Shown here: piece by piece, positions 15,840-62,635 of the stretch
Numbering within the stretch: the first letter of the stretch is position 1
Layout: every line of letters starts with the position of its first letter
Source of the DNA: Lingula anatina
Taxonomy: Eukaryota; Animalia; Brachiopoda
Reading direction: 5' to 3'
NCBI GenBank assembly: GCA_051362555.1
Contig: CM120643.1
Location: 29,268,848-29,332,847, forward strand
DNA: 64,000 nt
Notes under the pieces: generated by a model
The model's input: only the letters and a program-made list of their open reading frames with translations
Databases searched by the model: none
Told to the model about the DNA's origin: nothing
Position numbers and translations under genes: made by a program

Positions 15840-18800
15840 CTACAGTGGCATCTCTCTTGGTTGAATGAGAACTTCATTGACCGCTACATCTTTTGGTTGC
15901 TTCAAGGCATATATCACTGCACGGGCAGCATCCTCTGCAGTGAGTTTGATACCCTCATCCATATATCTAAAGCATCTCTTACACTGAAAAGTTTAGATAA
16001 AATAATCCTTAAATTTGCGCTTTTTTAGGTTGAAAATTTGACTTACCAAATGTCCTTGCTTAAGCTGAAGCAGATTTTAAACCTTAAAGGAAGGACTACT
16101 ATATGTAAATAATTAATGAAAACGCATGCAAACTTGTTTTCAAACATTTTTCTTGTAAAACTGAATAGTTACTGACATAGTTCTTACTTCATCGTCCATT
16201 TTGGTGACTCTTTCAGCGAGTCCAGGTGTGTCCACTGGCCCCGGTTGGACGCTGGTCACCTTGACTCCATCACGACACATCTCTTGTCTCAGCGTATGTG
16301 ACATCCCTTCCAGGAAATGCTTAGTTCCAACATATATTGCCAAGCCTTGTAAAGGCTGAAAACCAACAGCAACAGAATATTGGTATCAATTAGTCATAAA
16401 CCAAATTTTAGCTTTCTTTTCACGAGAGAAAAAACTCTTAAAAATCAAGTGAATCTAAAAGGCATTCAGCCACATCTACATCTACACAACTTCAAGCCAG
16501 TGCGCATGCGGGGATTCGTGTCCCACCGCTGCCCCCAATTCCACGACAAATAAAGTGCCGTTTTTACAAAACAATTTAGCCTGAAATTTACCTGGTCACT
16601 TTTAGACCAAAATTTTGTTCTACCCCATTCGAAATAAATACTCATCGGACACAAATCATGTCTTTTGTATTATAAAGCAAATGCAGTATTTCATTCAAAT
16701 GGCAGAAAACCTTATTTACGACCAATTTTCGGGTAAAATTCCATTATAAAACAGGCCCCTGTCGCCTCAGTCCTTGGGCAACATCCTAAAAGTGACCATG
16801 CGCAAAAGCGATTTTGGTAACACTCTCGTAAGCGTTTTCACATCTTTTTACACAAATTAGTATAAAAATTATTAGATACGTTATTTGCTGTTTCAAGGTA
16901 CTTGTACCATGATAAAATGGTAATGATGGAATTCCATGTGACCAATTCTAATAATTACCATTCTTCCGGCATCTGATGACACGTTGACAATATGCCCGCT
17001 TCTTCTCTCACACATACCACTTATCACTGCTCCGATACAATTAAGAACGCCCTGAAAAATAGTTCATAACATCTGGATATACTTGACTCATATTAAAATA
17101 TGTTAAATACTTTTAAGTGCATGCTATTCTATGCATTTGTAAAGAACTCTAGAATGTATGAATAAATAAACTAGAAAATCACTCAGAGAGCGCAGACATC
17201 CGCCAAGGCAGCTAAGTGGTTCATCTTATGTCGTTTCACTCCTAAATTTTCATTTTATAATAATTTAGTATTTTGATTTTTGATTATTGATTGATTATGA
17301 ATCCGGATCATCACCAAAAGCTAATCATGTGTTCCTTGCCCCGCTTCTGACAGTTCCTGAAAATTTTATCAAAATCGGTCCATAACCTTTTCTGTAATGT
17401 AGCATTATTATTTTTTGATGTTTGACTATTGATTATTGATCCGGATCACCACCAAAAACTAAGCACTTCTAAGTTAACCTGACTTACGCCGAAAATTCCA
17501 ACGAAGTTCATCCATAACTTTTGGAGAAATGTTGATGACAAACAATCAGACAGGCAAACAAACAAACAGGGGTGAAAACATAACCTTCTTGGTGGAGGTA
17601 TTTAGAAAAGAAGATTATATGTCCTCAAGAATTATGTTTGCGTCAGGAATGTTCTTTTTTTACTTTAGTTTATCACATTCCAGTGCCTTGTTGCTACATG
17701 TTCCCATGTCGTTTTATTTAAGAACTATTTTACAAAAATCAAGAATTTTAATAAGTTACACCATCTGTTTAAAGAAAAGAATCCAAGAAATCTCAGGGTC
17801 AGCAACAATTTTTTAATCCCAATAGTGAAAACGGAGTGTTTAAATCATCCTTTATAATGCACAGTCTTTTAAATTTCATGTAAAATACTGCTCCAAAATG
17901 TCTTATAAGTCTTGTTTTAAAGCTTTGGTCTTTTAGTTTATAATTTATAGTTACTTTTAAATACCTTATGATTTTATTTATGATACATTGTAAAACCTCA
18001 ACCTTTGGGTTGCGATTTTAGCAAAAAAATTATTATTATTATTATTAAAGAATATTAAAGTAGATTACAATTCTCCTTTTTAGGTTAAGACCAACTGCAG
18101 ACTGAATGTCTCTTGAAAACTTCAATTTAGTTTTGAAGGATCCATTCACTAACTAGTCCGAGGGTCAAATATGGCGACCCACTACAAAGCTTGCTGTCTA
18201 ACCCGCTAATAGGCACTGAATAGATATCCCTTGGGGAAGTATTTAAGTGGGTCGGCCATATTTGACCCTTGGACTAGTTAGTCCCCTATTCTGAATGGGA
18301 CCTAAGCCTATTTTGACATCAAAATATTAGTTTTACCTTAATGTTAACGTCAACTATCTCTTCCCACAGGTCTTCTTTGGCATATTTCATGAAGGTGTAG
18401 TGCCACACCCCGGCATTGTTGACAAGAATATCTACCGGACCAAACGTGTTCTCTGTCTGCTTTATCATTTCTTTGACCTTTAAGTAAGCGTGAAACAATC
18501 TTTATTATACAAAATTGACGGACTACTATGTGTTGGATATCCCTTTAAAAATTAACTACTTGTAAATATCCTATTGACTGTTTGGAAAGTTTGGAGAGAG
18601 AGAGAGGTGGCCCGATGCTCAAAATCATACCTCACTTCTTTTGGTTACGTCGCATGTCACAGCGATCACAACGCCGCCTTCTTTCTCGATTGTTTCTTTT
18701 GTCTCCAATAACAGTTTTTCTCCCCTGGCTACTAGGACAACTTTGGCGCCCTCTGCTGCCAACATTTTAGATATGGCCGCACCAATCCCAAATGAGGCTC

Positions 18801-19664
18801 CTGTTACCACGGCAACCTTCCCAGATAGAGGATTGTCTTCTGAAAAAGTCAAAGCACCTAAAATTTTCAAAAGCTTATAGCACGTATTGCTTTTTCACAG
18901 ATGCTTATTTGGAAAATATGGAGATCAAATAAACGATTTTTAAAAATGTTTGTTGTATGACTATGTTTCAGCCACTTATTATTGTTTGCTTAATAAGGTG
19001 AATTCAGTTAAAGAACTGATGTCATAATTACACTGAATAGATCTTCAAAGATATTAAAACATGATAAAAATCTTTGTTTTTATTTATTAGTCGGAAAAGT
19101 AGGGAAGTAATCAAAGAAGAATGACCTGGAAAAATATTCCATATAAAATGTCAAGTCTGTACATATAAGGACTGGGAGGGAGGGTTAATAAAGTGTAGAC
19201 AACCACTCTCTGAAGAAATAACTAGGTCACATTGTGATTTGTATAGGAAGGGGTGCAGACATCTAAAAGATACAAACCAACTTTTCACGTGACTTGTACA
19301 TGTATTTAAGGTCGTCTACAGAGGGGTCATAACGATAGATTCCTGCATGACAAAACCCGGCGTCGTAAGAGACCCTCTTAACATTCCTGTGAACAGACAT
19401 ATTATAGGTGAAGTTGCCCCCAATTTCGAACGCTGAGGTCATAGGTGCAATAAATAAACTTTAATTCAGACGTGATAAGAATATTGACGATATTACAAAG
19501 AAAACGCAACTAACATAAGTGGATAAAAAAGAGTTCTAAACGTGCGCACGTGCGCATGTGAGAGAGAGTGAGGGATGAGAGGGCACATATAGAGGGAAGT
19601 CAACCATTCCCCGAAATGAAAGAAGCAATTCAACTTTACCTTGCTTGTTGGTTTGATTTGCCAT
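15840..19664 (-). CDS. Classical SDR oxidoreductase, copy 2 (inverted, ~259 aa)
   Basis: Exons 19664-19640, 18839-18631, 18477-18337, 17051-16959, 16355-16188 and 15983-15840; same sizes as copy 1. Motifs TGASFGIG, NVSSDAGR, YVGTK. Confidence 0.88.
17169..17600. mobile_element. HINE-like family A, copy 3
   Basis: AACTAGAAAATCACTCAGAGAGCGCAGACATCCGCCAAGG ... CTTCTTGGTGGAGGTA, with an internal duplicated core and (AAAC)n. Confidence 0.65.
18138..18302. mobile_element. Foldback MITE (PIF/Harbinger-like), related to 32652 and 38159
   Basis: Inverted arms TAACTAGTCCGAGGGTCAAATATGGCGACCCACT / AGTGGGTCGGCCATATTTGACCCTTGGACTAGTTA. Termini GGATCCATTCA ... TGAATGGGACC. Confidence 0.6.
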
Positions 19665-42891: not shown

Positions 42892-43699
42892 ATGGCCGAC
42901 CACAGACGTGTCCTTCCGATCTTCGCAGTATTTTTACTGCTACATTGCGTATGGGGGGAAGGCGAAATTAACCAAAATGCTCTCCCGAACGAGAATTCTA
43001 ATTCACATCATGAGATACCGTTGAAGCGACAAAAACGTATCGAAACAAATGGAAATGGACAGTTTGCGAACGCTATCAACATGCAACAACATCCGCGGCA
43101 ACCAGCGGGGGCCGTCCCCCAAGTGCCGGCTGGCGGGCAGGGGCAGGGAAACATGCAACAACAAGGCAACCAAATCGGCGGAGGAGGATTGGCATTTAAA
43201 CAAAACCCTGCCGTTGATTATAAAAGCCCAAACCGGAGTCCGGGGAGCTTTCAGCAGCAACAACAAGCTGCCCACCCCACGCCTCCTATGAAACTTGCAG
43301 AAAACCCTGACTGTAAGGAGGAGATAAAACATTACTGCAGCCACAACCTTGCCAACTCCATGAGCAATAATTTCGCCGTGTTGGATTGCTTGCAGAATGA
43401 TCTGAAGGTGAGTTTGACGTCGAGACTTGTTGTTAGACAGTATAGATAATTGTTAGGCTATCCAATGTCTGACAGTGAACTTTAGAGTTACTGTGAATGA
43501 GGGAAATGAAATATATGCTGAGGAACACAGAGGGGAAAATAGCTGTGGGTTGTCAGTATATATAAGCGTCCACATGGGGGGCAGTAGTTCTACTGGAAGG
43601 AGTACTAGTAGGGTAATGCTTTCTCCTGTTGTAACCATGTACTCTCCCACCCCCTTGTATTCTACCAGTGCACCCCCTCCCACCCACCCACCCACACCC

Positions 43700-49700: not shown

Positions 49701-52700
49701 GCACATGCGCGCATAGCAAAACTACGGGAATCATTAGTTCGGCAAATTCCATGCATAAGCGTAAGGGAGTGATATTCTACGTAGTTTTGGAGATCGTTAT
49801 TGGTCCGACTGATACAAAAGAACGGCTCTCATTGGTCTTAGATGATGTTAAAAATAGAAATCCCACAAAAAAGTTACATGCGCTCTGCATTTGACAGCTT
49901 AGCCACCATTTTTCGGGTATTTGCATTAGCTGCGATGTGAAATTTTTTGCATATGGCGTAAGCAAGCCAAAGCAACGAGATATTCTGAAGTACCAAGCAC
50001 TAGTTCGTTTAGTCAAGAATCCAGCGCTGATTCAGAATGTAAGAAAGTCTAAAATGACTATCTTTAAGATTCACTTCTAAAATTAAGTCAGAGGGAGGCT
50101 GAAAACATTTATCATGAAAAGATGGGTTTTTAGTAAGGCTTTTAAACTATCGCCGTCACTTTCAGTTCTGATATTTTAACATTAATTAATTCTTTTAAAA
50201 AAGAATGAAGAACTGTGATTTGGATAAAACTTGTGATGTGTGAAATATTAAGTTTATTTGAATAAATAAAGTCATTTGAAAACAGTGTAATATGTGATTG
50301 TGGAAATGCATACCACATCATGAGGACCACTAAAAATTAGCTTGGACTAGTAACACAGCAAAGTCACTTGTCCCATAGGACCAGTGACCCAAAATTTCTG
50401 TTTCAACCCCTGTAAGGTGTTGATTAGCAACTGTGTAGAATTTTAGACTGTTTAGAATTTTAATACATTTTCCATTTGAATCCAGAAGGTGGCAGCACTT
50501 TCTGATGAGGCTTAGATTACTTTGTCTTGGCTGCTTTTTTGATAAACCTTGTTTCCATTCATTGTTTCTTGGCATCAACATATATTTCCAGATTTCATGA
50601 CAAATTTGTCAGTTTTTTGTATTTGTCATCCCTGAAAAAAAGGAATATTGGTTGAAAAGCAGCCAAAGTTCTACAAAATGAATTATAATTTTTTAAGTAT
50701 TCATGATATTAACAGGATTCTTTAAAATGCAAAAAGACCATTTTTATGAGTTCTGCTCATCTTGAAAAGTACTGACAGCGCTGGTCCCAAGTAAGACGAT
50801 TCATTTCTGTCAAAATTCTGTCATTCTGTCAAAATTCACCATCACCTGGGGTGGGCTTAGCCATATCACCACTTTTATGTCAATTTGTTATCAAAATGGT
50901 TATAATTTGACTAAAACAAGTCAAATCAAGCCCATTTTCTTTAGCCAATGAAGGCCAGTTTTAGCATTTGGCTAAATTGGCAAGTGTTAGCGCTACCCCA
51001 GATCACTTTTTTCAGGCAAAAAGGTCTCCGCAGAGTGTCAGTCAGAGATGAACAACTGGCGTCGCAGCTTAATGGAAGATTACCAGCTGACGCCTGAGGT
51101 AGCCAAGGACTGTTCGACTGAGGTGACCCAATACTGTGATGGTGGCACGGAGAGAGGCGGGAAGACACTACACTGTCTGATGGACCTGGCCAGACCCAGA
51201 GAGAGACAGTTTGATAAACAGCCCAGGATTAGTGAGCAATGTCTCAGAGCGGTGAGTTGGGAGAATCTTAATTGTGGTTTGTCATTGGGGCTTGTGGTAA
51301 TTTTAGGTGATGAAATCTTTGAACGAGGTAAAAATGAAAATTTATCAGTTAAATTCAGGGATTTTATGGAAATCATCTTCTGGGTCATTCGGAGACAGAA
51401 TATTTCAAGTTAACATTGACGGGCATCTAATTTTTTCAGAAGACGGTCAAAAATGAAAAATGGCTCAACAAAAAAAATTTGTAAGCCTGTCAGAAAATGT
51501 CTCTGGATCCACCCCTGAAAATTGCAACTTTAGCCATGTTATGGCAGATTTTTTGCATGAAGATCTTAAAACTGTTCACAGCAACAAGCGTATAAAGTGA
51601 TGTATTAAATCATTTCAGCTGGAGGGTCTGATTAAGGTGGCGGATGCGGCAGAAGACATCAGGGTGGATCCCTCCGTGATGCAGGCGTGTCAACCTGTGG
51701 CTAGTGTGCTGTGTAAAGATGTCAAACCAGGAGATGCCAAGTAAGACCAGTTTCACAAAAAAAACTAAGTCAGGTTCCCTGGCTAAGAGCTTAATTACCA
51801 AGGTTACATGGTCACATGGGCACATCTTACCCTATCAGGAGCAGTGTGACAGCATTCACATGGAAATCATAGTCAACTTAGCCAGGGGACTGACTTAAGT
51901 TTTTTTGTGAAACTGGCACCAGGTTACGTACTTATAGATTTTACCTTAGACTAGTTAAACTAAAACATTTTTGGACCATATGAAGTAAAGTTCAGGTAGA
52001 TTTTGTGTAAGATTTGTAAAACAGTTGAATTAAAAAGAAAGGTTTTCAACAAAGTCACTAAGCATGCTTATTCCTATACAGCCAAAAGATTAAGAATTGT
52101 TTTATTTGATTAAATCTTGTGCAAATCGTGCAAATTTCTATAGAGGTGGGAGAGGGTGGGTTGAAAAGTTTCCAGTGCAGGTTAGATTGGTCTAGGTAAT
52201 ACAAAGTCCTAATGGCAGCTATACCTATTTCCAGTGTGATGGCATGCCTGATGGACAAGATGGAGTCAGACAAAATGACAGACGAATGCGAAGAGCGCCT
52301 GGTAGAAATACAGTACTTTGTAGCTAGGGACTTCAAGTAAGTGATTTTACACATAATATTGCCATTTTTAAAGTGATGTTACCTTTTGCTAGGATGTAGT
52401 TGTATAATTATTACTGGAAAAACTGAAAAACTGTTTAGTTCACTTTGAACTCTCACTTTTTTTATTAATTGGAAAATAGTATGGCAAACTACAAAATTGG
52501 ATATTATTTTTAAAAATAACTTAAAGTTGTCTTTAAAAACTGGTCATTACAGTTTGTGTGTAGTTGTTTATTTAGAATATATCTTATTTTAAAATATAAT
52601 CACACGACAGGGATTTCTGTGAACTTGATATGAACAACACTTTGTAATTGTTTTGTGCATGTTATTGTACCACCAGCGTTAGCGCTGGCGGTACACATGG

Positions 52701-55700
52701 TTTCGGTCTCGTCCGGATCGTTCCGCCGGCTCCGCCGGCTCCGCCGGACGGCTACCGTTACCGCTTCTCCTCCTAGACGGTAAGGCCCCCCATACCCATC
52801 TCATGGATTTAGGTCACCTATAATCTCAACTCGTTCCACGTAAAATTTGGGCTTTGTCGGTATTGGGGTCTGGGTGTGGCACTCATTGCAATGCACCCTT
52901 GTCCAAAAATGGCAAAATTAAATGCTAATTATCTACCCTACGGAAGGAGTTACGGGAAAAATTTCTACAGACGGCTTTCCAAAAGTCATATGTGTAGATT
53001 TCAAATATACCCTCGGATTTGACCTTTGACCTTTACTTCAAGGTCAAATGGGCCAAAATTTTCAAAAAAATGAAATTTTTTACGAAAAAAAAATTTTTTG
53101 CCCTGTTATTCAGACACCACACAGACTTAACCAATAATATTATTGGAAAGTGTTACCCTTCAGGTCATCTTTCATCTCCGTGAATTTGGGGTCAATCGGT
53201 GCATTTTCACAGGAGTAGCGGCCATAAGATACCGAAACTGAAAACTGTCTCTAATTCGGGAACCGTTAATGCTAGAGACCCATTCTTTTTTGCATTTTGT
53301 AGAGCATGTAAAGCCCAACACTGGAGGTGGTCTCGGTTTTTTTGTATTCCATACGGTTTTCGAGTTACGCTGTATCAAAAAGTACATATTGGTGGTGAAA
53401 GGAAAATGTACGGAAGCCCACTGGTGCCATATGTAGAAAAAAAAATTATCTCGAAATTTCGAGATACTATTTTGAAATTTGAACAAAAAAATTTACCACC
53501 AGCGTTAGCGCTGGCGGTACACATGGTTTCGGTCCCGTCCGGTCCGTTCCGCCGGCTCCGCCGCCATGTTACCGTTACCGCTTCTCCTCCTAGACGGTAA
53601 GGGCCCCCGTACCCATCTCATGGATTTAAGTCACCTATAATCTCAACTCGTTCCACGTAAAATTTGGGCTTTGTCGGTATTGGGGTCTGGGTGTGGCACT
53701 CATTGCAATGCACCCTTGTCTAAAAATGGCAAAATTAAATGCTAATTATCTACCCTACAGAAGGAGTTACGGGAAAAATTTCTATAGACGGCTTTCCAAA
53801 AGTCATATGTGTAGATTTCAAATATACCCTCGGATTTGACCTTTGACCTTTACTTCAAGGTCAAATGGGTCAAAATTTTCAAAAAAATGAAATTTTTTAC
53901 GAAAAAAAATTTTTTTGCCCTGTTATTCAGACGCCACACAGACTTAACCAATAATATTATTGGAAAGTGTTACCCTTCAGGTCATCTTTCATCTCCGTGA
54001 ATTTGGGGTCAATCGGTGCATTTTCACAGGAGTAGCGGCCATAAGATACCGAAACTGAAAACTGTCTCTAATTCGGGAACCGTTAATGCTAGAGACCCAT
54101 TCTTTTTTGCATTTTGTAGAGCATGTAAAGCCCAACACTGGAAGTGGTCTCGGTTTTTTTGTATTCCATACGGTTTTCGAGTTACGCTGTATCAGAAAGT
54201 ACATATTGGTGGTGAAAGGAAAATGTACGGAAGCCGACTGGTGCCATATGTAGAAAAAAAAATTATCTCGAAATTTCGAGATACTATTTTGAAATTTGAA
54301 CAAAAAAAATTTTTATCTCGAAATTTCGAGATAGCATTTTGAAATTTGAACAAAAAAAAAATTATCTCGAAATTTCGAGATAGCATTTTGATATTTGAGC
54401 AAAAAAATTTATCTCGAAATTTCGAGATAGTATTTTGAAATTTGAACAAAAAAAATGCTATCTCGAAATTTCGAGATAATTTTTTTTTTCAACATATGGC
54501 ACCAGTCGGCTTCCGTAAAAATGTGCAGTACGGTAATGGATAATAAATTTTGAACTCCGGAAAAATAAAACATAATGCTTGGCAAAGCAGACAACTTGTG
54601 GTCAAAAATGACATTATTTTATCAAATTTAAACTTCTGCAACTTCAGAGAACCTCCCATTTCAAGAACTTTGACCAAAATGACCTTTTCTTTATTTTAAT
54701 TAATTTTTTCTGTAGGAAATTTATGGCACATTATGGTAACTCCAAAATTATAACATTTAGTCCCTTATATCTCCAAAACTGGCAGAGATAGGTCCATAGT
54801 TACTATTGAAGTTGAATAGGAAGTCATATACTGGCAATCTTACTGTGACCTTGACATTGACCTTTGACCTACTTTTCACCATGAACTGAACTTTGCAAAT
54901 TTTGCTTCCCTTTTATCTCCAAAACTGGCAGAGATAGGTCCATAGTTACTATTGAAGTTGAATAGGAAGTCATATACTGGCAATCTTACTGTGACCTTGA
55001 AATTGACCTTTGACCTACTTATCACCATGAACTGAACTTTGCAAATTTTGCTTCCCTTTTATCTCCAAAACTGGCAGAGATAGGTCCATAGTTACTATTG
55101 AAGTTGAATAGGAAGTCATATACTGGCAATCTTACTGTGACCTTGAAATTGACCTTTGACCTACTTATCACCATGAACTGAACTTTGCAAATTTTGCTTC
55201 CCTTTTATCTCCAAAACTGGCAGAGATAGGTCCATAGTTACTATTGAACTTGAATAGGAAGTCATATACTGGCAATTTTACTGTGACCTTGAAATTGACC
55301 TTTGACCTACTTTTCACCTTGAACTGAACTTTGCAAAATTTGCTTCCCTTTTATCTCCAAAACTGGCAGAGATAGGTCCATAGTTACTATTGAACTTGCA
55401 TAGGAAGTCATATACTGGCAATTTTACTGTGACCTTGAAATTGACCTTTGACCTTCTTTTCACCATGAACTGAACTTTGCAAATTTTGCTTCCCTTTTAT
55501 CTCCAAAACTGACAGAGATAGGTCCATAGTTACTATTGAAGTTGAATAGGAAGTCATATACTGGCAATCTAAATGTGACCTTGAAATTGACCTTTGACCT
55601 ACTTTTCACCATGAACTGAACTTTGCAAATTTTGCTTCCCTTTTATCTCCAAAACTGGCAGAGATAGGTCCATAGTTACTATTGAAGTTGAATAGGAAGT

Positions 55701-58700
55701 CATATACTGGCAATCTTACTGTGACCTTGAAATTGACCTTTGACCTACTTATCACCATGAACTGAACTTTGCAAATTTTGCTTCCCTTTTATCTCCAAAA
55801 CTGGCAGAGATAGGTCCATAGTTACTATTGAACTTGAATAGGAAGTCATATACTGGCAATTTTACTGTGACCTTGAAATTGACCTTTGACCTACTTTTCA
55901 CCTTGAACTGAACTTTGCAAAATTTGCTTCCCTTTTATCTCCAAAACTGGCAGAGATAGGTCCATAGTTACTATTGAACTTGCATAGGAAGTCATATACT
56001 GGCAATTTTACTGTGACCTTGAAATTGACCTTTGACCTTCTTTTCACCATGAACTGAACTTTGCAAATTTTGCTTCCCTTTTATCTCCAAAACTGGCAGA
56101 GATAGGTCCATAGTTACTATTGAAGTTGAATAGGAAGTCATATACTGGCAATCTAAATGTGACCTTGAAATTGACCTTTGACCTACTTTTCACCATGAAC
56201 TGAACTTTGCAAATTTTGCTTCCCTTTTATCTCCAAAACTGGCAGAGATAGGTCCATAGTTACTATTGAAGTTGAATAGGAAGTCATATACTGGCAATCT
56301 TACTGTGACCTTGAAATTGACCTTTGACCTACTTTTCACCATGAACTGAACTTTGCAAATTTTGCTTCCCTTTTATCTCCAAAACTGGCAGAGATAGGTC
56401 CATAGTTACTATTGAAGTTGGATAGGAAATCATATACTGGCAATTTACTGTGACCTTGAAATTGACCTTTGACCTACCTTACAATGAACTTAACTTTGAT
56501 TGCACCATTTTTAGTTATATATATTTTTTGCATATTTTGAAAATTCTTGTTGATTGCATTTTTACAGCTTGTCAAGCACAAGACTGGTGGCTGCACCCCT
56601 TATTTTGTGTATGTGGGGGTCTACACGAATGCGCTTGCTCCAGCTGGTGGTACAATATTCGGAGGCGGTATCGCCTCTCTGATCCTCTAGTTTAAGATAT
56701 TTCTGTGTGTGTGTATTTGTTGTTGAAGTATGCCGACTCATGGTAGCAGGTACTGATGTCCTCAAAACCCTGACTGTATTGTTGTCCAACTGTTGGCTTG
56801 TCTGCTGTCTTCAGGGACCAGTTTCTTTGTATATTTTAAATTATTACTCAAGAATGAACACTCGCAAAAAAAAAAAAAAAAAAAAAAAACTAATGTACAA
56901 ATGTGCATCTTGTTTCTCTTTTCCTCTTGATTACTCTGCATTTACCTTTTTATTTACCAAAAAAAAAAAGTATTAAATGCTAGTTTCTACCTGAATCTTC
57001 AAATCTGAAGACCATGTTCTCCTGTCAAGCTATGGAGAGGCCTTAGTTACTACATCTTTTTATTTCTCTGTCTATGCATACAGTTATATGAAGTCTCTCT
57101 CATCAGGGGTGGATCAGCCCCCCCCTTCCCACAAGACCTTCCTATTTTTTCTAATTATGAAATTGTTGATTTTTATTTTAAAAGTACAAAAAAGGGAAAG
57201 GTATTATTTTTTCTCTATTTTTTCTTTCTCCCTATGTTAGCATTCTCTGTTGCCAGCTCCTCTTGCTCACACTGCCACCTATATTTCCAGTCTAGACTCC
57301 AGACTACACAAACTATGTCACAAAGATGCAGTAAAGCACTGCCACGCCTCTGAGAACTGGTACGATCCTGACACGGAAGGGCCCAGTAACGGCCCCTTAA
57401 TCCTGCCTTGCCTTTACGGCAGAATCATGCATCACGAAAACGATCCTCATATGCAGGTAATTCTGTGCGATGTTGTCTTTGTTTGTTGCAGTCTGGCGCA
57501 GTGGATAGTTGCAGGTATGGAATAACCAACCCAGGATGTCTGTTTTGACTCATTGTCTTTCTTTTCCTTTTTAGCCTTAGATGTGGAAGAATCTACCCCT
57601 TGGCGTGGTTTTTGTTTAATTTCTGATGTTGTATTAAATGAAGGTTGTGTTCTTTAGTTCCAGGTGAAAACTTCCTATTTCATAACTTTGGTGGACTGAC
57701 ATATTGAAGAGGGGACTTATTAAATATCACCATAACTTCAGAGTTCATAATTTGTTTTGTGAATCGCATACAGATATCTTTTGTACGACCAGTCAAAATT
57801 TTTTTAAGACTACCAGTCAAAATTTTTTTTAGGATCATATTGCTACCTGAATTTTATCTTAAGTGTCCTAAGTGCCATAAAGTTATAATTTTTTTCAAAA
57901 GTTGCTAATTTATTGGCAAGATGAGCCCCGTTTCACAAAGCAGGTTGTGTCCTCTCTGATTTTATGTGTGGTATTTACACCAGTGGTCTCCATATTTATA
58001 CAACTTTTTTTCGATGTTTCTAACGTCTCTGTGTCTATCCCTTGTCTCAGTCTGGCGCCTCGTCTTTACCGGAAGTGTTGGAAGGTGGCACAGAATTACT
58101 GTGGGGTCCAGGACTGGAGGACGGAGATGTCCGAAAATGAGCGAAAAAAGAGGCCACCGGGTTTTGTTCTCGCATGCCTGCATCGCAAATTTAAGGAAAT
58201 GCCCAAGGATCATTTGCAGAAGGACGATGTGAATAATAAATGAATTTGTGCTTTTGTTTTCTTCTCATGAATATTGATGCACTTTTTTATATCACAAGTT
58301 GTTTGATTTGAAAAAAAATTGGAATATTTATGCATGGCTGATTAAATATGCACTTTTCATCCAGTATTCAAAGTAACAGGCTGTTTTTATCAAACATCTC
58401 AATCTTCAAGCAACTTTTTAAACATTTAACATTTTTATGAACTGAAAGCAAACCCAGAAGAAACATCTGCTTCCATGATAGACAAACAGCTTTCAGTGCA
58501 AATTTCCGCAACACAGTTGGGATACACTGATAGAGTATGGTCATGCTTTGATTGCTATCTAGAAGCTTGTCATTTACATAACTCTGTCATGAAATTTCAT
58601 TTTAAATATGATGATGAAAAGAGTGCATGGATATTGTGTTAGCTGTTGATCCAAGGCTTTAATTTCCCTGCAGTGTGTCTTGTGTGTGATCGTCTGCTGT

Positions 58701-61700
58701 TTCATTGATGGAAGTTATTCTTAATTTTAGGTGTCTTGGGTTGAAGTTTTCCACTTCTTTACCTTCTTTTCCATTTTTTTTGATTACATAATGGAAGAAG
58801 TGCTGTTAGTTTATTCATATATAATAAACATGTTTCTGTTAGTGTCTGAAGGTTCTAACAATTTACTAACAATTTCAGAGTTACAAATTATGTATTCTGT
58901 TGAGTCTTGCACTTGATTTTTGAAGGTGTTGAAATCTGGAGAAAAAAAAACAAAGTCAACCCAGTTTCCAAACTCCTGAGTTCTGCACTTTTTGTGGATG
59001 ATGTTTGTATTTTGCACATTCTTGATAATTTTCTTCTGTTTTTCTACTTGATTTCAGCTCATGCTTTATCTAATTCCAATTACTAGTTTCTTTTAGTCAT
59101 GATAGCCCCCGTATCCTGCTGTTGTTAATATTGATTGGATTATTTTCTATTATGATTTATGTCATTTACTACAATTTATAGCAAAAGTGAAGTTCAAGAG
59201 AAACAAAACCAACAAACAAATCGAAAAAAGTTGATTTAAAAAGTTTGGATAAGATCATAATGTTGTAATGATGATTCTATTCAACCAGTTTGTGTTTAAA
59301 AAGTAATTATTCAAATAACTTGTAGCCTACGAGAAAGTTAATACAAATAATGCTTTGCTGTTACTTGTAGTAAATTGCATTTGTGAAGGATTTTATATTG
59401 AGTTTATGGCTTTGTTTCTATTAAGTTTTGTGGAATGAAATGGTTTTATATGTTTGGTTATGTCGTAAATATCTACAAATGTATGGAGATATTTTTCTTT
59501 TATTTTGTATTACATAATATTTGAGGGCTTTAAAAGTTTAAGGTAATATTTGTGATTAAAAATTAATTTTAGATAGATATATTTACAAGGTAACAAGTTT
59601 TCCTTGGGACTGTAGAAAAAAATAAAGATTCATTCTTAAATAAGTTTGAAATATGAATATTATAAAACAACCAGATCTTTGCCCTTTTTGTTCTTCAGAT
59701 TTCCCGCCAGTGTGCACTGGAAGTGAAGCGTGTGATGCACCAGAGGGCGCTAAATGTAGATCTGGAACCACGTATTGAGGAGCCGTGTATGGCTGATCTT
59801 GCCACGTACTGTTCACAGGAGACAGAGAAAGGAGCTGTGAGTATACACAGTTTGATGAAAATCTTGGCCTTTGATTCTTACTCAGTTTTCCAGTAGATGG
59901 AGAGAGAGGCCATGACAGTCTGCTTTAAGTTTGCAGGTGTTGACATGTCTGCCAATTTTAGCTTAATATAAATTTCTGTCATACTCTTATTATTTGAGCC
60001 ATTACAGGAATAAGGAAAATTAAAAAATCATTTTCCTACAATTTTCAGTCAAATTTCACTTGCTAAATTTGTTTTTTCTTTTTGTTTTTCTATTTTTTAT
60101 TTTTCCTTGTATACAGGAAGTGGAATGTCTCCAAGACAACTATGATAGTTTGAGTGACGAATGCCAGGAAGCAGTGGGTAACTTCACAGAAGACGAGGAT
60201 GCAGACATAGAACTAGACAAGATCCTGATGAAGGCTTGTATGCCAATGTTGAGGACTTTCTGCCAGGTTGGTTCTTCTCCTTATCTGTACAGACAGCAGA
60301 CCAGTAGTCGGGGGTGGGGTGGGGGTGGGGTGGGGGGGGTTGAAAGTGCCTATTTTTGCTGCCAATTTACTGTAGGAATAGATTAACTTTAAGTAATCTT
60401 CTTCATATGATTCAGAAAGTATTTAAAAACATAATAGTGTTTAATGAGAATATATATACATTTTATTTTTCATTATTATAAGAAACCAATTAACAAAAAA
60501 AGGAAAAATTAAATAAGAACATTTTCTGCATTTATTGTTTCAAGCTACAGGGGATTTGTGAAAAAAAATAATAAAAAAATAACCAAAAAGCAATCTTGTT
60601 TATGTTATTAGAAAGAGATGGAGGATGACAGAGATACAGGAGAAGTAATGGAGTGCCTTATCAAACAGAAACACTCCCCCCAGATGGACCTCAAGTGTGC
60701 AGCAGGCATAGAGCATCATCAGCTGGTATGTAGGCAACACATAGGACACTTGTTCTTTAGTTTTTTCTTTCTCCATAAATCAAGCAATGATTCAAGACAT
60801 CAGACATTGCTGTTTTTACTTGGGAGGAAAATTAGATTTGGTGCAAATAATCTTATGCTGAATAGCTCAAACACAGTGGCACAGTTACTGCAGTAACATG
60901 TCCAACACAATTGGAAAAACTTGTATTTTCACAATGAACACATTAGCACATTTGGTGTATTATCACACCTAACACAATGGCAAAACATTGTATATTCACA
61001 TCTTACACAATGCTCTCTCTGTTCCAGATCACACTTAAGGACTACAGATTTAGCCACAAGTTTAAAGAAGCCTGCAAAGCTGATGTTATGAAGTTATGCA
61101 AAAATGCCAAATCAAAGTGAGTACAGAGTTTCAAAATTTAAACTATTTCTTGAAATGTCTACCTTGTATTTTGCATAAAAGCAGTCCTTTTGAGGTTGAA
61201 TAAAAAAAATGCTTTACTATTGGCCATTCCACAGTAACACACAGTTTGTGTTCTTTGCATAATTTTAACTTATCCCAATATTTTGCATGTTTGACACTGA
61301 AGAAATATCAGATATGGCTGGGGTAGGGCTAGCAATTTTTTTCGCTTAGCCAAATCACCACTTTGTCAGTTTGTTATCCAAATGGTTATAATTTGACTAA
61401 AACAAATCAAATCAAGCCCTTTTTGTTTAGCCAATTTAAGTCAGTTTTAGCATTTGGCTAAATTGGCGAGTGTTAGCGCTACCCCAGTATGGGAAGATTT
61501 CGACAGTAATTAAAAAATGGTATAAAACAGTTATGAAATATTTCACACAAAATGTGTCTCTGATGTGAATTTTTTGTGGATTGACCCAAAACTGTCATGG
61601 AGAATATTTTCTCTTTATAAATTCCTTTCTGATGTCTATTTCTCCTTTAATCTTCACATCTGTGTTCTTTGTTTTTCAATAAAGAATTTATTTGTTAATG

Positions 61701-62635
61701 CATTTCTTCCTCAGGTCCCAGGTAGTGGTCTGCCTTAGTGAACACATGAGAAATGACACCCTGCTGGATAAAGTACAGAGATTGTCTGCTAAGTGTCTGT
61801 CACAGCTGAAGTTTGAACTGTTACAGAGGGTAAGTTAACACACTGCTGGATAAAGTACAGAGATTGTCTGCTAAGTGTCTGTCACAGCTGAAGTTTGAAC
61901 TGTTACAGAGGGTAAGTTAACACACTGCTGGATAAAGTACAGAGATTGTCTGCTAAGTGTCTGTCACAGCTGAAGTTTGAACTGTTACAGAGGGTAAGTT
62001 AACACCTTGCTAGATAAAGTACAGATATTGATTTTCAGAATAACTTTATCTTCAAGTTATCAGTTGTGGTTGAAGTTTGTGCTGTGGTAGCCAGTAAGTG
62101 GGGAAAGGAATCTACTTTGAACAAGGACTACATCTTTTTTTTATCCATAACTTTAACAAAAATCAATTTTTCAAGATGTGTGATTTTAGCAAAAAAAAAA
62201 AAAAAAAGAAACTAAATAATGCCCACACTAAAAAAACACTGCTGTTCCGTCTTTGTCAGTTCTTGAGCTTAAACTTGGAAATCACAATATTGAGTGAATT
62301 CTTGTCAAACTTACATATCTTTAAGATTCCTTATTGTATGAGCATTAGTGTACTAATCATTCTCTCTTTGATATTTTAAAAACAAAATTATTGCTATATT
62401 AATTTATGTACAGCATTTAGTATGGTTGCATATATTTGTAATTATTTCTTATTTACTGATTTTTTAGTCGGAGTCGATTAAACTGGACCCAGATCTTCTC
62501 CGGTCATGCCAGGAAGATATTGACCAGTTTTGCCCAGACAAGAATGCAGGGAACGCAGAGGTCACCGAGTGCCTTAGGAAGAAAAACCCAAAGAAACTGT
62601 CCAGTTCATGTAGAAGTATGTTGTTTAAACGAGAG
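42892..62635 (+). CDS. GLG1: Golgi apparatus protein 1 (cysteine-rich FGF receptor / ESL-1 / MG-160), 5' part; continues beyond the window
   Basis: Exons 42892-43407, 47182-47214, 47802-47888, 48264-48482, 48812-49057, 49260-49446, 51016-51251, 51619-51740, 52235-52336, 57291-57456 or 58051-58228, 59699-59836, 60117-60266, 60612-60725, 61028-61116, 61715-61829 and 62468-62635; GT-AG with continuous frame. Signal peptide, Gln-rich N-terminus, and repeated three-Cys units with GLG1-typical motifs (IFSDYRLI, AELQSDDYHMDRPLYFAC, EIQYFVARD, CAAGIEHHQL, KDYRFSHKFKEAC). Confidence 0.93.
45401..45660. mobile_element. Fully palindromic MITE with 3-bp TTA target duplication (PIF/Harbinger-type)
   Basis: TTA|GGCTTCGTTCACATGCAATGTCTATTTTC ... 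GAAAATAGACATTGCATGTGAACGAAGCC|TTA, with arms of ~120 bp. Confidence 0.88.
50846..51001. mobile_element. MITE with CTGGGGT...ACCCCAG termini and 5-bp TSD (ATCAC)
   Basis: Homologous to 61318-61487; flanked by ATCAC on both sides. Confidence 0.75.
51746..51917. mobile_element. MITE remnant adjacent to a GLG1 splice donor
   Basis: CCAGTTTCACAAAAAAAACTAAGTCAG..CCCTGGCTAAG versus CTTAGCCAGGGGACTGACTTAAGTTTTTTTGTGAAACTGG. Confidence 0.7.
52664..56690 (+). mobile_element. Helentron-type non-autonomous element (HINE-like, ~4 kb) in a GLG1 intron
   Basis: 5' subTIR ATTGTACCACCAG with adjacent inverted copy (GTACCACCAGCG-ttag-CGCTGGCGGTAC), (CCGGCT)n, a duplicated ~820 bp block, TCTCGAAATTTCGAGA repeats, 146-bp array, 3' subTIR CTGGTGGTACAAT at 56644-56656, hairpin at 56661-56678, CTAG-TT end. 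Confidence 0.82.
54769..56480. repeat. Tandem array, 146 bp unit, ~12 copies
   Basis: ATCTCCAAAACTG recurs at 54769, 54915, 55061 ... 56375. Confidence 0.97.
61318..61487. mobile_element. MITE with CTGGGGT...ACCCCAG termini and 5-bp TSD (TATGG)
   Basis: TATGG|CTGGGGTAGGGCTAGC ... GTTAGCGCTACCCCAG|TATGG. Confidence 0.8.
61761..62025 (+). repeat. 82-bp tandem repeat (3 full copies plus a partial) spanning a GLG1 exon end and donor
   Basis: CTGCTGGATAAAGTACAGAG...TTACAGAGGGTAAGTTAACAC starts at 61761, 61843 and 61925. Confidence 0.95.

Follow-up and report, generated by a model that had tools for sequence, protein, structure and literature searches.

The question raised by this locus is whether two homologous, highly diverged exons lying between the same pair of constitutive exons of the Lingula anatina GLG1 gene are used as alternatives in the transcript, for how long such an alternative has been kept, and what it may do to the protein. 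The stretch analysed, hereafter the window, comprises 64,000 nucleotides of contig CM120643.1 (assembly GCA_051362555.1, positions 29,268,848 to 29,332,847 of the forward strand); its features are listed in Table 1. Exon A was a 100% match to GLG1 isoform X2 of L. anatina (XP_013408738.1; P0001), and isoform X1 (XP_013408737.1; P0002) carries exon B, the two proteins differing only in the swapped segment; a protein search with the exon B sequence alone returned no candidate. RefSeq thus holds exactly the same exon swap as the window pair, which is therefore already known as an automatic annotation, although that annotation says nothing on conservation, charge or function and the flanking exons of the window differ from it by up to ~6%. 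The other GLG1 exons of the window were ~94-100% identical per exon to the RefSeq proteins, so that the window represents another haplotype or a close relative.

Both Lingula isoforms contain 16 PF00839 repeats with a four-cysteine period, an architecture in common with GLG1/MG-160/ESL-1/cysteine-rich FGF receptor, and Lingula GLG1 is 40-52% identical to GLG1 across animals. By the cysteine period, the swapped segment corresponds to most of repeat 8 of 16 and includes Cys 592, 600 and 623 of P0001, the next cysteine (Cys 643) lying in a constitutive exon. Compared singly with Pfam PF00839, the exons gave E values of 0.015 (A) and 0.00037 (B), both below the gathering score. The hydrophobic N- and C-terminal stretches of P0001, judged by eye, fit a signal peptide and a single C-terminal membrane helix followed by a short tail, and structure models of the oyster protein likewise predict helices at the N- and C-terminal hydrophobic stretches. 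A sequence search of the PDB for a GLG1 structure gave 0 matches.

Table 1. Coordinates of the GLG1 exons and neighbouring elements in the window.
Feature	Position	Strand	Description	Basis
GLG1 first coding exon	42892..43407	+	signal peptide, Gln-rich stretch, start of repeat 1	
Constitutive upstream exon	52235..52336	+	phase 2 end, donor CAA/GTAAGT	loose ends of reads
Repeats, most of upstream intron	52668..56520		~817-nt two-copy element, short palindromic units, 146-nt tandem array	repeat search
Exon A branch-like motif and acceptor	57265..57290	+	putative branch point	sequence; acceptor use from reads
Exon A	57291..57456	+	most of CFR repeat 8, P0001 residues 584-638; net charge -3, 7 His; major form	
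Exon B branch-like motif and acceptor	58018..58050	+		sequence; 3 reads in run X8 continue into upstream exon
Exon B	58051..58228	+	alternative repeat 8, P0002 residues 584-642; net charge +6, 2 His; minor form	
Constitutive downstream exon	59699..59836	+	phase 0 start; next Cys (643 in P0001), most of repeat 9	read joints, tblastn

The first coding exon was placed by tblastn with P0001 residues 1-172 (94.8% identity), its limit at 43407 being the end of the alignment and not a read-checked donor, and the gene extends beyond the window end, with the C-terminal exons outside it. Within the window, the interval 61760-62010 contains three occurrences, spaced 82 nt apart, of the 3' part of a GLG1 exon together with its donor (P0001 residues 816-840), the extra copies being without an obvious acceptor. 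At 5800-40000, repeated Rossmann-type exons in the + strand translation mark a tandem cluster of about six genes, presumably short-chain dehydrogenase-like, one of which apparently lies on the - strand at ~18600-18900.

Exons A (166 nt, AG..GTAATT) and B (178 nt, AG..GTGAAT) both have lengths of 3n+1, are preceded by an AG and a pyrimidine tract, and show no stop in the reading frame passed on by the upstream exon, the start of which was inferred from an AG at 52233-52234 and the protein match. The A-B intron measures 594 nt, the branch-like motifs lie at 57265-57270 for exon A and at 58018-58024 for exon B, 27 nt before the latter, and the exon B donor (GAT/GTGAAT) is weak, with a poor match to the consensus. 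Each exon encodes three cysteines, and A and B are identical at 16 of 61 aligned columns. Spliced in silico, A alone or B alone gave an open frame; inclusion of A+B led to a stop at 58138, inside B, and skipping of both to a stop at 59724. These stops fall ~90-110 nt ahead of the next junction, with further junctions downstream, so that nonsense-mediated decay of such products is likely. The first-pass annotation, made from the sequence, had described the pair with the same coordinates, phases and translations, pyrimidine-rich acceptors, branch-like motifs and three cysteines per exon; it had also taken the exons to be homologous yet highly diverged, and had held that having both in or both out would break the frame. 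All of this was borne out on rechecking. An exhaustive scan of all AG..GT/GC intervals in 52337-59698 (100-279 nt, 3n+1, open, at least 3 Cys, at least 13/20 pyrimidines) yielded no third repeat-like exon. The repeats filling most of the upstream intron have no part in the exon switch as far as tested; the 817-nt element has inverted ends, the 146-nt array that follows it runs to ~12 copies at 96-99% identity, and from their sequence these repeats look like a young mobile or satellite insertion.

The use of both exons was assessed in RNA from eight of nine Lingula runs (X6 left out), of which 6-30% each was aligned to stretches from 56900, with joints and loose ends listed from at least 3 reads from 2 starts; the upstream exon lies outside these stretches, so joins to it are visible as loose read ends only. 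The junction 57456>59699 was covered by 6, 10, 8, 3, 0, 15, 13 and 11 reads in runs X1, X2, X3, X4, X5, X7, X8 and X9, respectively (66 in total), and 58228>59699 by 1, 0, 0, 0, 0, 3, 5 and 4 reads (13 in total). Loose ends matching the end of the upstream exon were found before A in 17, 6 and 10 reads of runs X7, X8 and X9 (33), and before B in three reads, all of run X8. The junctions foreseen in the first-pass annotation, from 52336 into either exon and from either exon to 59699, were thus recovered, the former two as loose ends. The case that would have spoken against it, A joined to B in frame, was not encountered: no 57456>58051 joint was listed in the eight runs, at a low depth that leaves rare A+B forms possible. 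Similarly, no direct join of the upstream exon to 59699 was found among the loose ends listed in the eight runs, and rare skipped forms are possible. Exons A and B are mutually exclusive and both are spliced in RNA, a conclusion we regard as practically certain. B is the minor form (13/79 junction reads), with 0 B junction reads in 4/8 runs. Its share was 1/25 junction reads in study P1, 12/51 in P3 (Fisher p 0.05) and 0/3 in P2, but tissue of origin and genotype are both confounding factors, the P3 animals differing in genotype, so that the contrast between P1 and P3 is only a hint.

Variants among the reads were biased towards silent changes in both exons. Among those listed, 8/8 in exon A were silent (P 3e-6 against 80% expected non-synonymous) and 5/7 in exon B (P 0.005 against the same expectation), the two non-silent variants of B being Q>K and K>R, by which charge is kept or added. 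Many exon positions in runs X7-X9 differed from the window in nearly all reads, most reads being 90-99% alike, which indicates a diverged population or a sister form under the same species label. In run X7, 11 reads enter the downstream exon at 59696 from sequence foreign to the window (median 66 loose letters, in frame; best ungapped match to the window, 10 mismatches in 30), and this sequence was not among the rows listed for runs X8 and X9; it may come from a third exon present in another haplotype, from an alternative first exon, or from a chimera made in library preparation. Read-through of the B donor adds four residues and then a stop, with an AATAAA at ~58234 and some read depth over 58268-58609 in runs X2 and X9; a truncated secreted isoform is possible, though intronic background occurs elsewhere too.

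The exclusive choice may be kept by the two donors competing with each other, that of A being strong and that of B weak, with nonsense-mediated decay removing the A+B and skipped products. Mutually exclusive duplicated exons are also found in the docking/selector clusters of the Dscam type. GLG1 resembles these in being an invertebrate cell-surface or secretory protein with such exons, and differs from them in that it has just two such exons and that no pairing scored above shuffles. The docking/selector pairing proposed for checking by the first-pass annotation was looked for as ungapped pairing in 11 region pairs with 30 shuffles each, and none stood clearly above the shuffles, the best two scores being reached by 1/30 and 3/30 of them. 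When six donors were compared with the U12 consensus, no U12-type site was found, all being ordinary GT. Steric exclusion, for which the branch point of the second exon would lie within ~50 nt of the donor of the first, may be unlikely with an A-B intron of 594 nt, in which the putative branch point lies 27 nt before B. The pair resembles the frame-incompatible class described by Hatje et al. 2017 (PMC5740500), namely tandem homologous exons in the same frame, of a length other than 3n, the joint inclusion of which leads to decay. According to that atlas, 60% of human mutually exclusive exon clusters are frame-incompatible, the commonest class, and only five genes have exon clusters homologous between human and fly, which suggests that deep conservation of such clusters is uncommon; GLG1 is not named in the available main text or 10 supplement files (PMC5740500).

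The conservation of the swap was examined in 22 isoform sets, clusters having been looked up for 20 of 120 listed homologues, with exon layouts and intron positions in relatives deduced from protein sequences. The same segment was swapped at the same boundaries in 10/14 other lophotrochozoan sets, from nemerteans, bivalves, gastropods and a cuttlefish (11/15 with Lingula), the swapping sets being those of Lingula, Lineus, Tubulanus, Ostrea, Saccostrea, Magallana, Mytilus, two Haliotis species, Patella and Sepia; one version only was found in Owenia (B-like) and in Babylonia, Liolophura and Octopus (A-like). The swap was seen in 0/7 non-lophotrochozoan sets: unlike in Lingula, repeat 8 was unswapped in those of a crinoid, a sea anemone, two spiders and two amphioxus, as well as in the one vertebrate set examined, from a pipefish. 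In a count that left out the Pinctada merged model and used the A isoform as query, cluster representatives were B-like by >10 bits in 11/35 lophotrochozoans and 0/51 arthropods. The arthropod single exons were clearly A-like in 44/51 cases and B-like in none, and those of deuterostomes lean slightly to B (median 6.9 bits), so that each great lineage may show one arm of the switch. The duplication may predate the arthropod split.

Two further alternatives within GLG1 came to light in these comparisons. Amphioxus isoforms swap another segment (P0030 residues 432-474, corresponding to Lingula 286-324), apparently, to judge from the protein sequences, a second, independent mutually exclusive pair, which suggests that GLG1 exons have duplicated more than once. 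Isoforms of Haliotis (P0058/P0136) and Mytilus (P0063/P0147) differ by a shared 7-residue insert at residues ~709-725, which is probably due to a micro-exon that has been conserved or to an alternative splice site.

The two versions of the segment differ consistently in charge. B was more basic than A in 12/12 pairs from five clades (the A/B charges of Lingula, Saccostrea and Patella, for instance, being -3/+6, 0/+8 and +4/+11, respectively), and the His count was higher in A in 8/12 pairs and equal in 4/12; since the pairs come from related species and their A/B labels were assigned by likeness to Lingula A, these counts describe a pattern and not 12 independent tests. Along the Lingula chain, the stretches around repeats 7-10 carry charges of -5, -3 (A) or +7 (B), -9 and -7, and with B repeat 8 is more basic than any other repeat. 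The first-pass annotation had anticipated a switch altering the surface charge or ligand binding of one luminal repeat, with A His-rich and B Lys/Arg-rich, and the charges of repeat 8 (-3 against +7) and the His counts of the exons (7 against 2) agree with the change of charge. In the AlphaFold2 models of the oyster isoforms (A: P0007; B: P0125), which are all-helical, the swapped segment is predicted to form the same two helices (528-541/559-571 in A, 528-542/559-577 in B) around a variable loop, with loop pLDDT falling to ~50-55 and pTM of 0.45-0.47; a fold search with the oyster A model returned generic helical solenoids only, at TM <=0.16. Neither Lingula exon contains a sequon, and no glycosylation sequon or basic cleavage motif common to the B exons was seen in the alignment by eye. 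A furin-type site, considered as a conserved function of B on account of a basic run followed by Pro in Lingula, was rejected because these are not found in other B exons.

The FGF-binding fragment of chicken GLG1 reportedly covers the middle repeats. A human GLG1 isoform reportedly differs at the C-terminal tail. This isoform has a different localisation, according to a title in the reference list of PMC13601173. Vertebrate GLG1 has been linked to FGF, heparin/heparan sulfate, TGF-beta maturation and E-selectin in PMC10202991, and it is for vertebrates only that this binding and a Golgi localisation are known. From these ties and the location of the FGF-binding fragment, a ligand-surface role of A and B is proposed. 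The two exons provide repeat 8, which lies midway along a luminal chain of helical repeats, in two versions; both peptides would fold as the same helix-loop-helix with the same three cysteines, and the swap would thus change the surface and not the scaffold. With A, repeats 7-10 would remain one acidic, His-bearing stretch for basic cargo (FGF, TGF-beta family), with a surface that is possibly pH-sensitive. B would provide a fixed basic patch favouring sulfated glycans or acidic partners, or pairing with adjacent acidic repeats. Overall, we consider it probable that an old exclusive pair supplies two versions of repeat 8, the swap likely changing ligand choice; that it tunes ligand binding as such is, in our estimate, evenly balanced.

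In a tree of 49 segments and 53 columns, built under LG+G4 and a mixture model, the Owenia segment fell together with the B exons found in Lingula, cuttlefish, bivalves and gastropods (94/79 and 94/96, respectively, with no starred support) and the arthropod single exons grouped with A. Together with the order of A before B, which Lingula has in common with the merged gene models of Pinctada, Magallana and Sepia, the tree makes it quite likely that one duplication preceded the split of brachiopods, annelids and molluscs and that the pair is of shared origin across phyla. These phyla separated more than 500 million years ago. Brachiopods, nemerteans and molluscs might instead each have made a second copy of an exon prone to duplication, with this copy drifting or converging to a basic surface, which we judge improbable, and the common A-then-B order speaks against it. 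Such repeated duplication would accommodate the nemertean B exons, which form a separate pair outside the main B group (99/94 and 98/93), and the existence of the amphioxus swap at another segment lends it some plausibility. In AU tests of groups chosen after the first tree had been seen, it was favoured in that nemertean A+B as one clade was not rejected (p 0.26) and the mixture model allowed Lingula A and B as sisters (p 0.105), which LG+G4 rejected (p 0.036); it was opposed by the rejection under both models of a mollusc-only (p 0.019, 0.018) and a cephalopod-only origin (p 0.048, 0.014), and by all B as one clade not being rejected (p 0.44). A lophotrochozoan-only clade was also not rejected (p 0.23). 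With leave-one-clade-out profiles, A segments were assigned to A in 12/12 cases and B segments to B by >8 bits in 9/12, the nemertean and Pinctada B segments scoring about equally on both; when scored on a B profile from which it had been left out, Lingula B reached 52.9 bits, compared with 32.4 on the A profile, which again argues against an independent brachiopod copy. The nemertean exons may reflect a separate duplication, or the duplication as a whole may be older. As for the earlier suggestion of an old duplication kept by selection, it is supported by the presence of the same swap across lophotrochozoan phyla and by the silent-biased variants in both exons.

The pair may be real and old and its role structural or regulatory, acting on the bend of the chain, Golgi retention, shedding, or the amount of GLG1 via decay, a reading we regard as rather unlikely. 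The basic patch of B, placed between the acidic repeats 7, 9 and 10, could pair within the chain, B is the minor form, its donor is weak with a read-through stop four codons on, and vertebrate GLG1 is shed from cells according to PMC10202991, all of which would suit such a role; however, a pure decay switch would not need both exons to be open with silent-biased variation, and the B exons have no basic cleavage motif or sequon in common. Far less probable is that exon B represents a duplicate in decay, a leaky one, or an artefact of assembly or alleles. The runs lacking B junction reads (4/8), the weak donor and some intronic depth near B in runs X2, X3 and X9 would be expected of a leaky copy, but A and B have only 16/61 residues in common and yet are both open, reads show splicing at either end of B, segments resembling it are kept in molluscs and an annelid, and RefSeq proteins of a differing haplotype (94-100% per flanking exon) carry both segments, so that this explanation is largely refuted.

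The preferred reading, an exclusive pair that alters the ligand-facing surface of repeat 8, has a parallel in the FGFR IIIb/IIIc exons, where a duplicated exon swaps half of a ligand-facing domain and ligand switching is established. As in the proposed model, the duplicated exon lies in an FGF-binding protein, the ligand switch of GLG1 being our inference; the folds are unrelated, an Ig domain in FGFR versus a helical cysteine repeat in GLG1. At its boldest, the proposal would make GLG1 a ligand switch more than 500 million years old, a Golgi-side counterpart of FGFR IIIb/IIIc in which tissues choose for the centre of the luminal chain between A, a pH-sensitive acidic surface with His for growth factors, and B, a fixed basic one that binds glycans, a version that we hold to be rather doubtful. 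In the full-text literature, which mostly excludes subscription journals, no published description was found of the GLG1 repeat 8 swap as a switch that is conserved and contrasts in charge. Mutually exclusive exon events are called by MetazExp on 16 Lingula runs (PMC8728262), and the GLG1 A/B swap may be listed there. What is new here is how deep the conservation goes and that the contrast in charge is fixed, the class of mechanism being already known.

The 16 GLG1 repeats have been mapped poorly with respect to the ligands that each binds. That repeat 8 has been kept in two versions by several phyla, with the same contrast of charge throughout, points to a functional surface and provides a ready natural pair of variants. 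To the few such clusters described in lophotrochozoans, the finding adds a deeply conserved one, with an apparent loss of one arm in some lineages and, in amphioxus, an apparent second, independent swap. If the bold version of the proposal were true, repeat 8 would be a ligand-specificity site of GLG1 in all animals.
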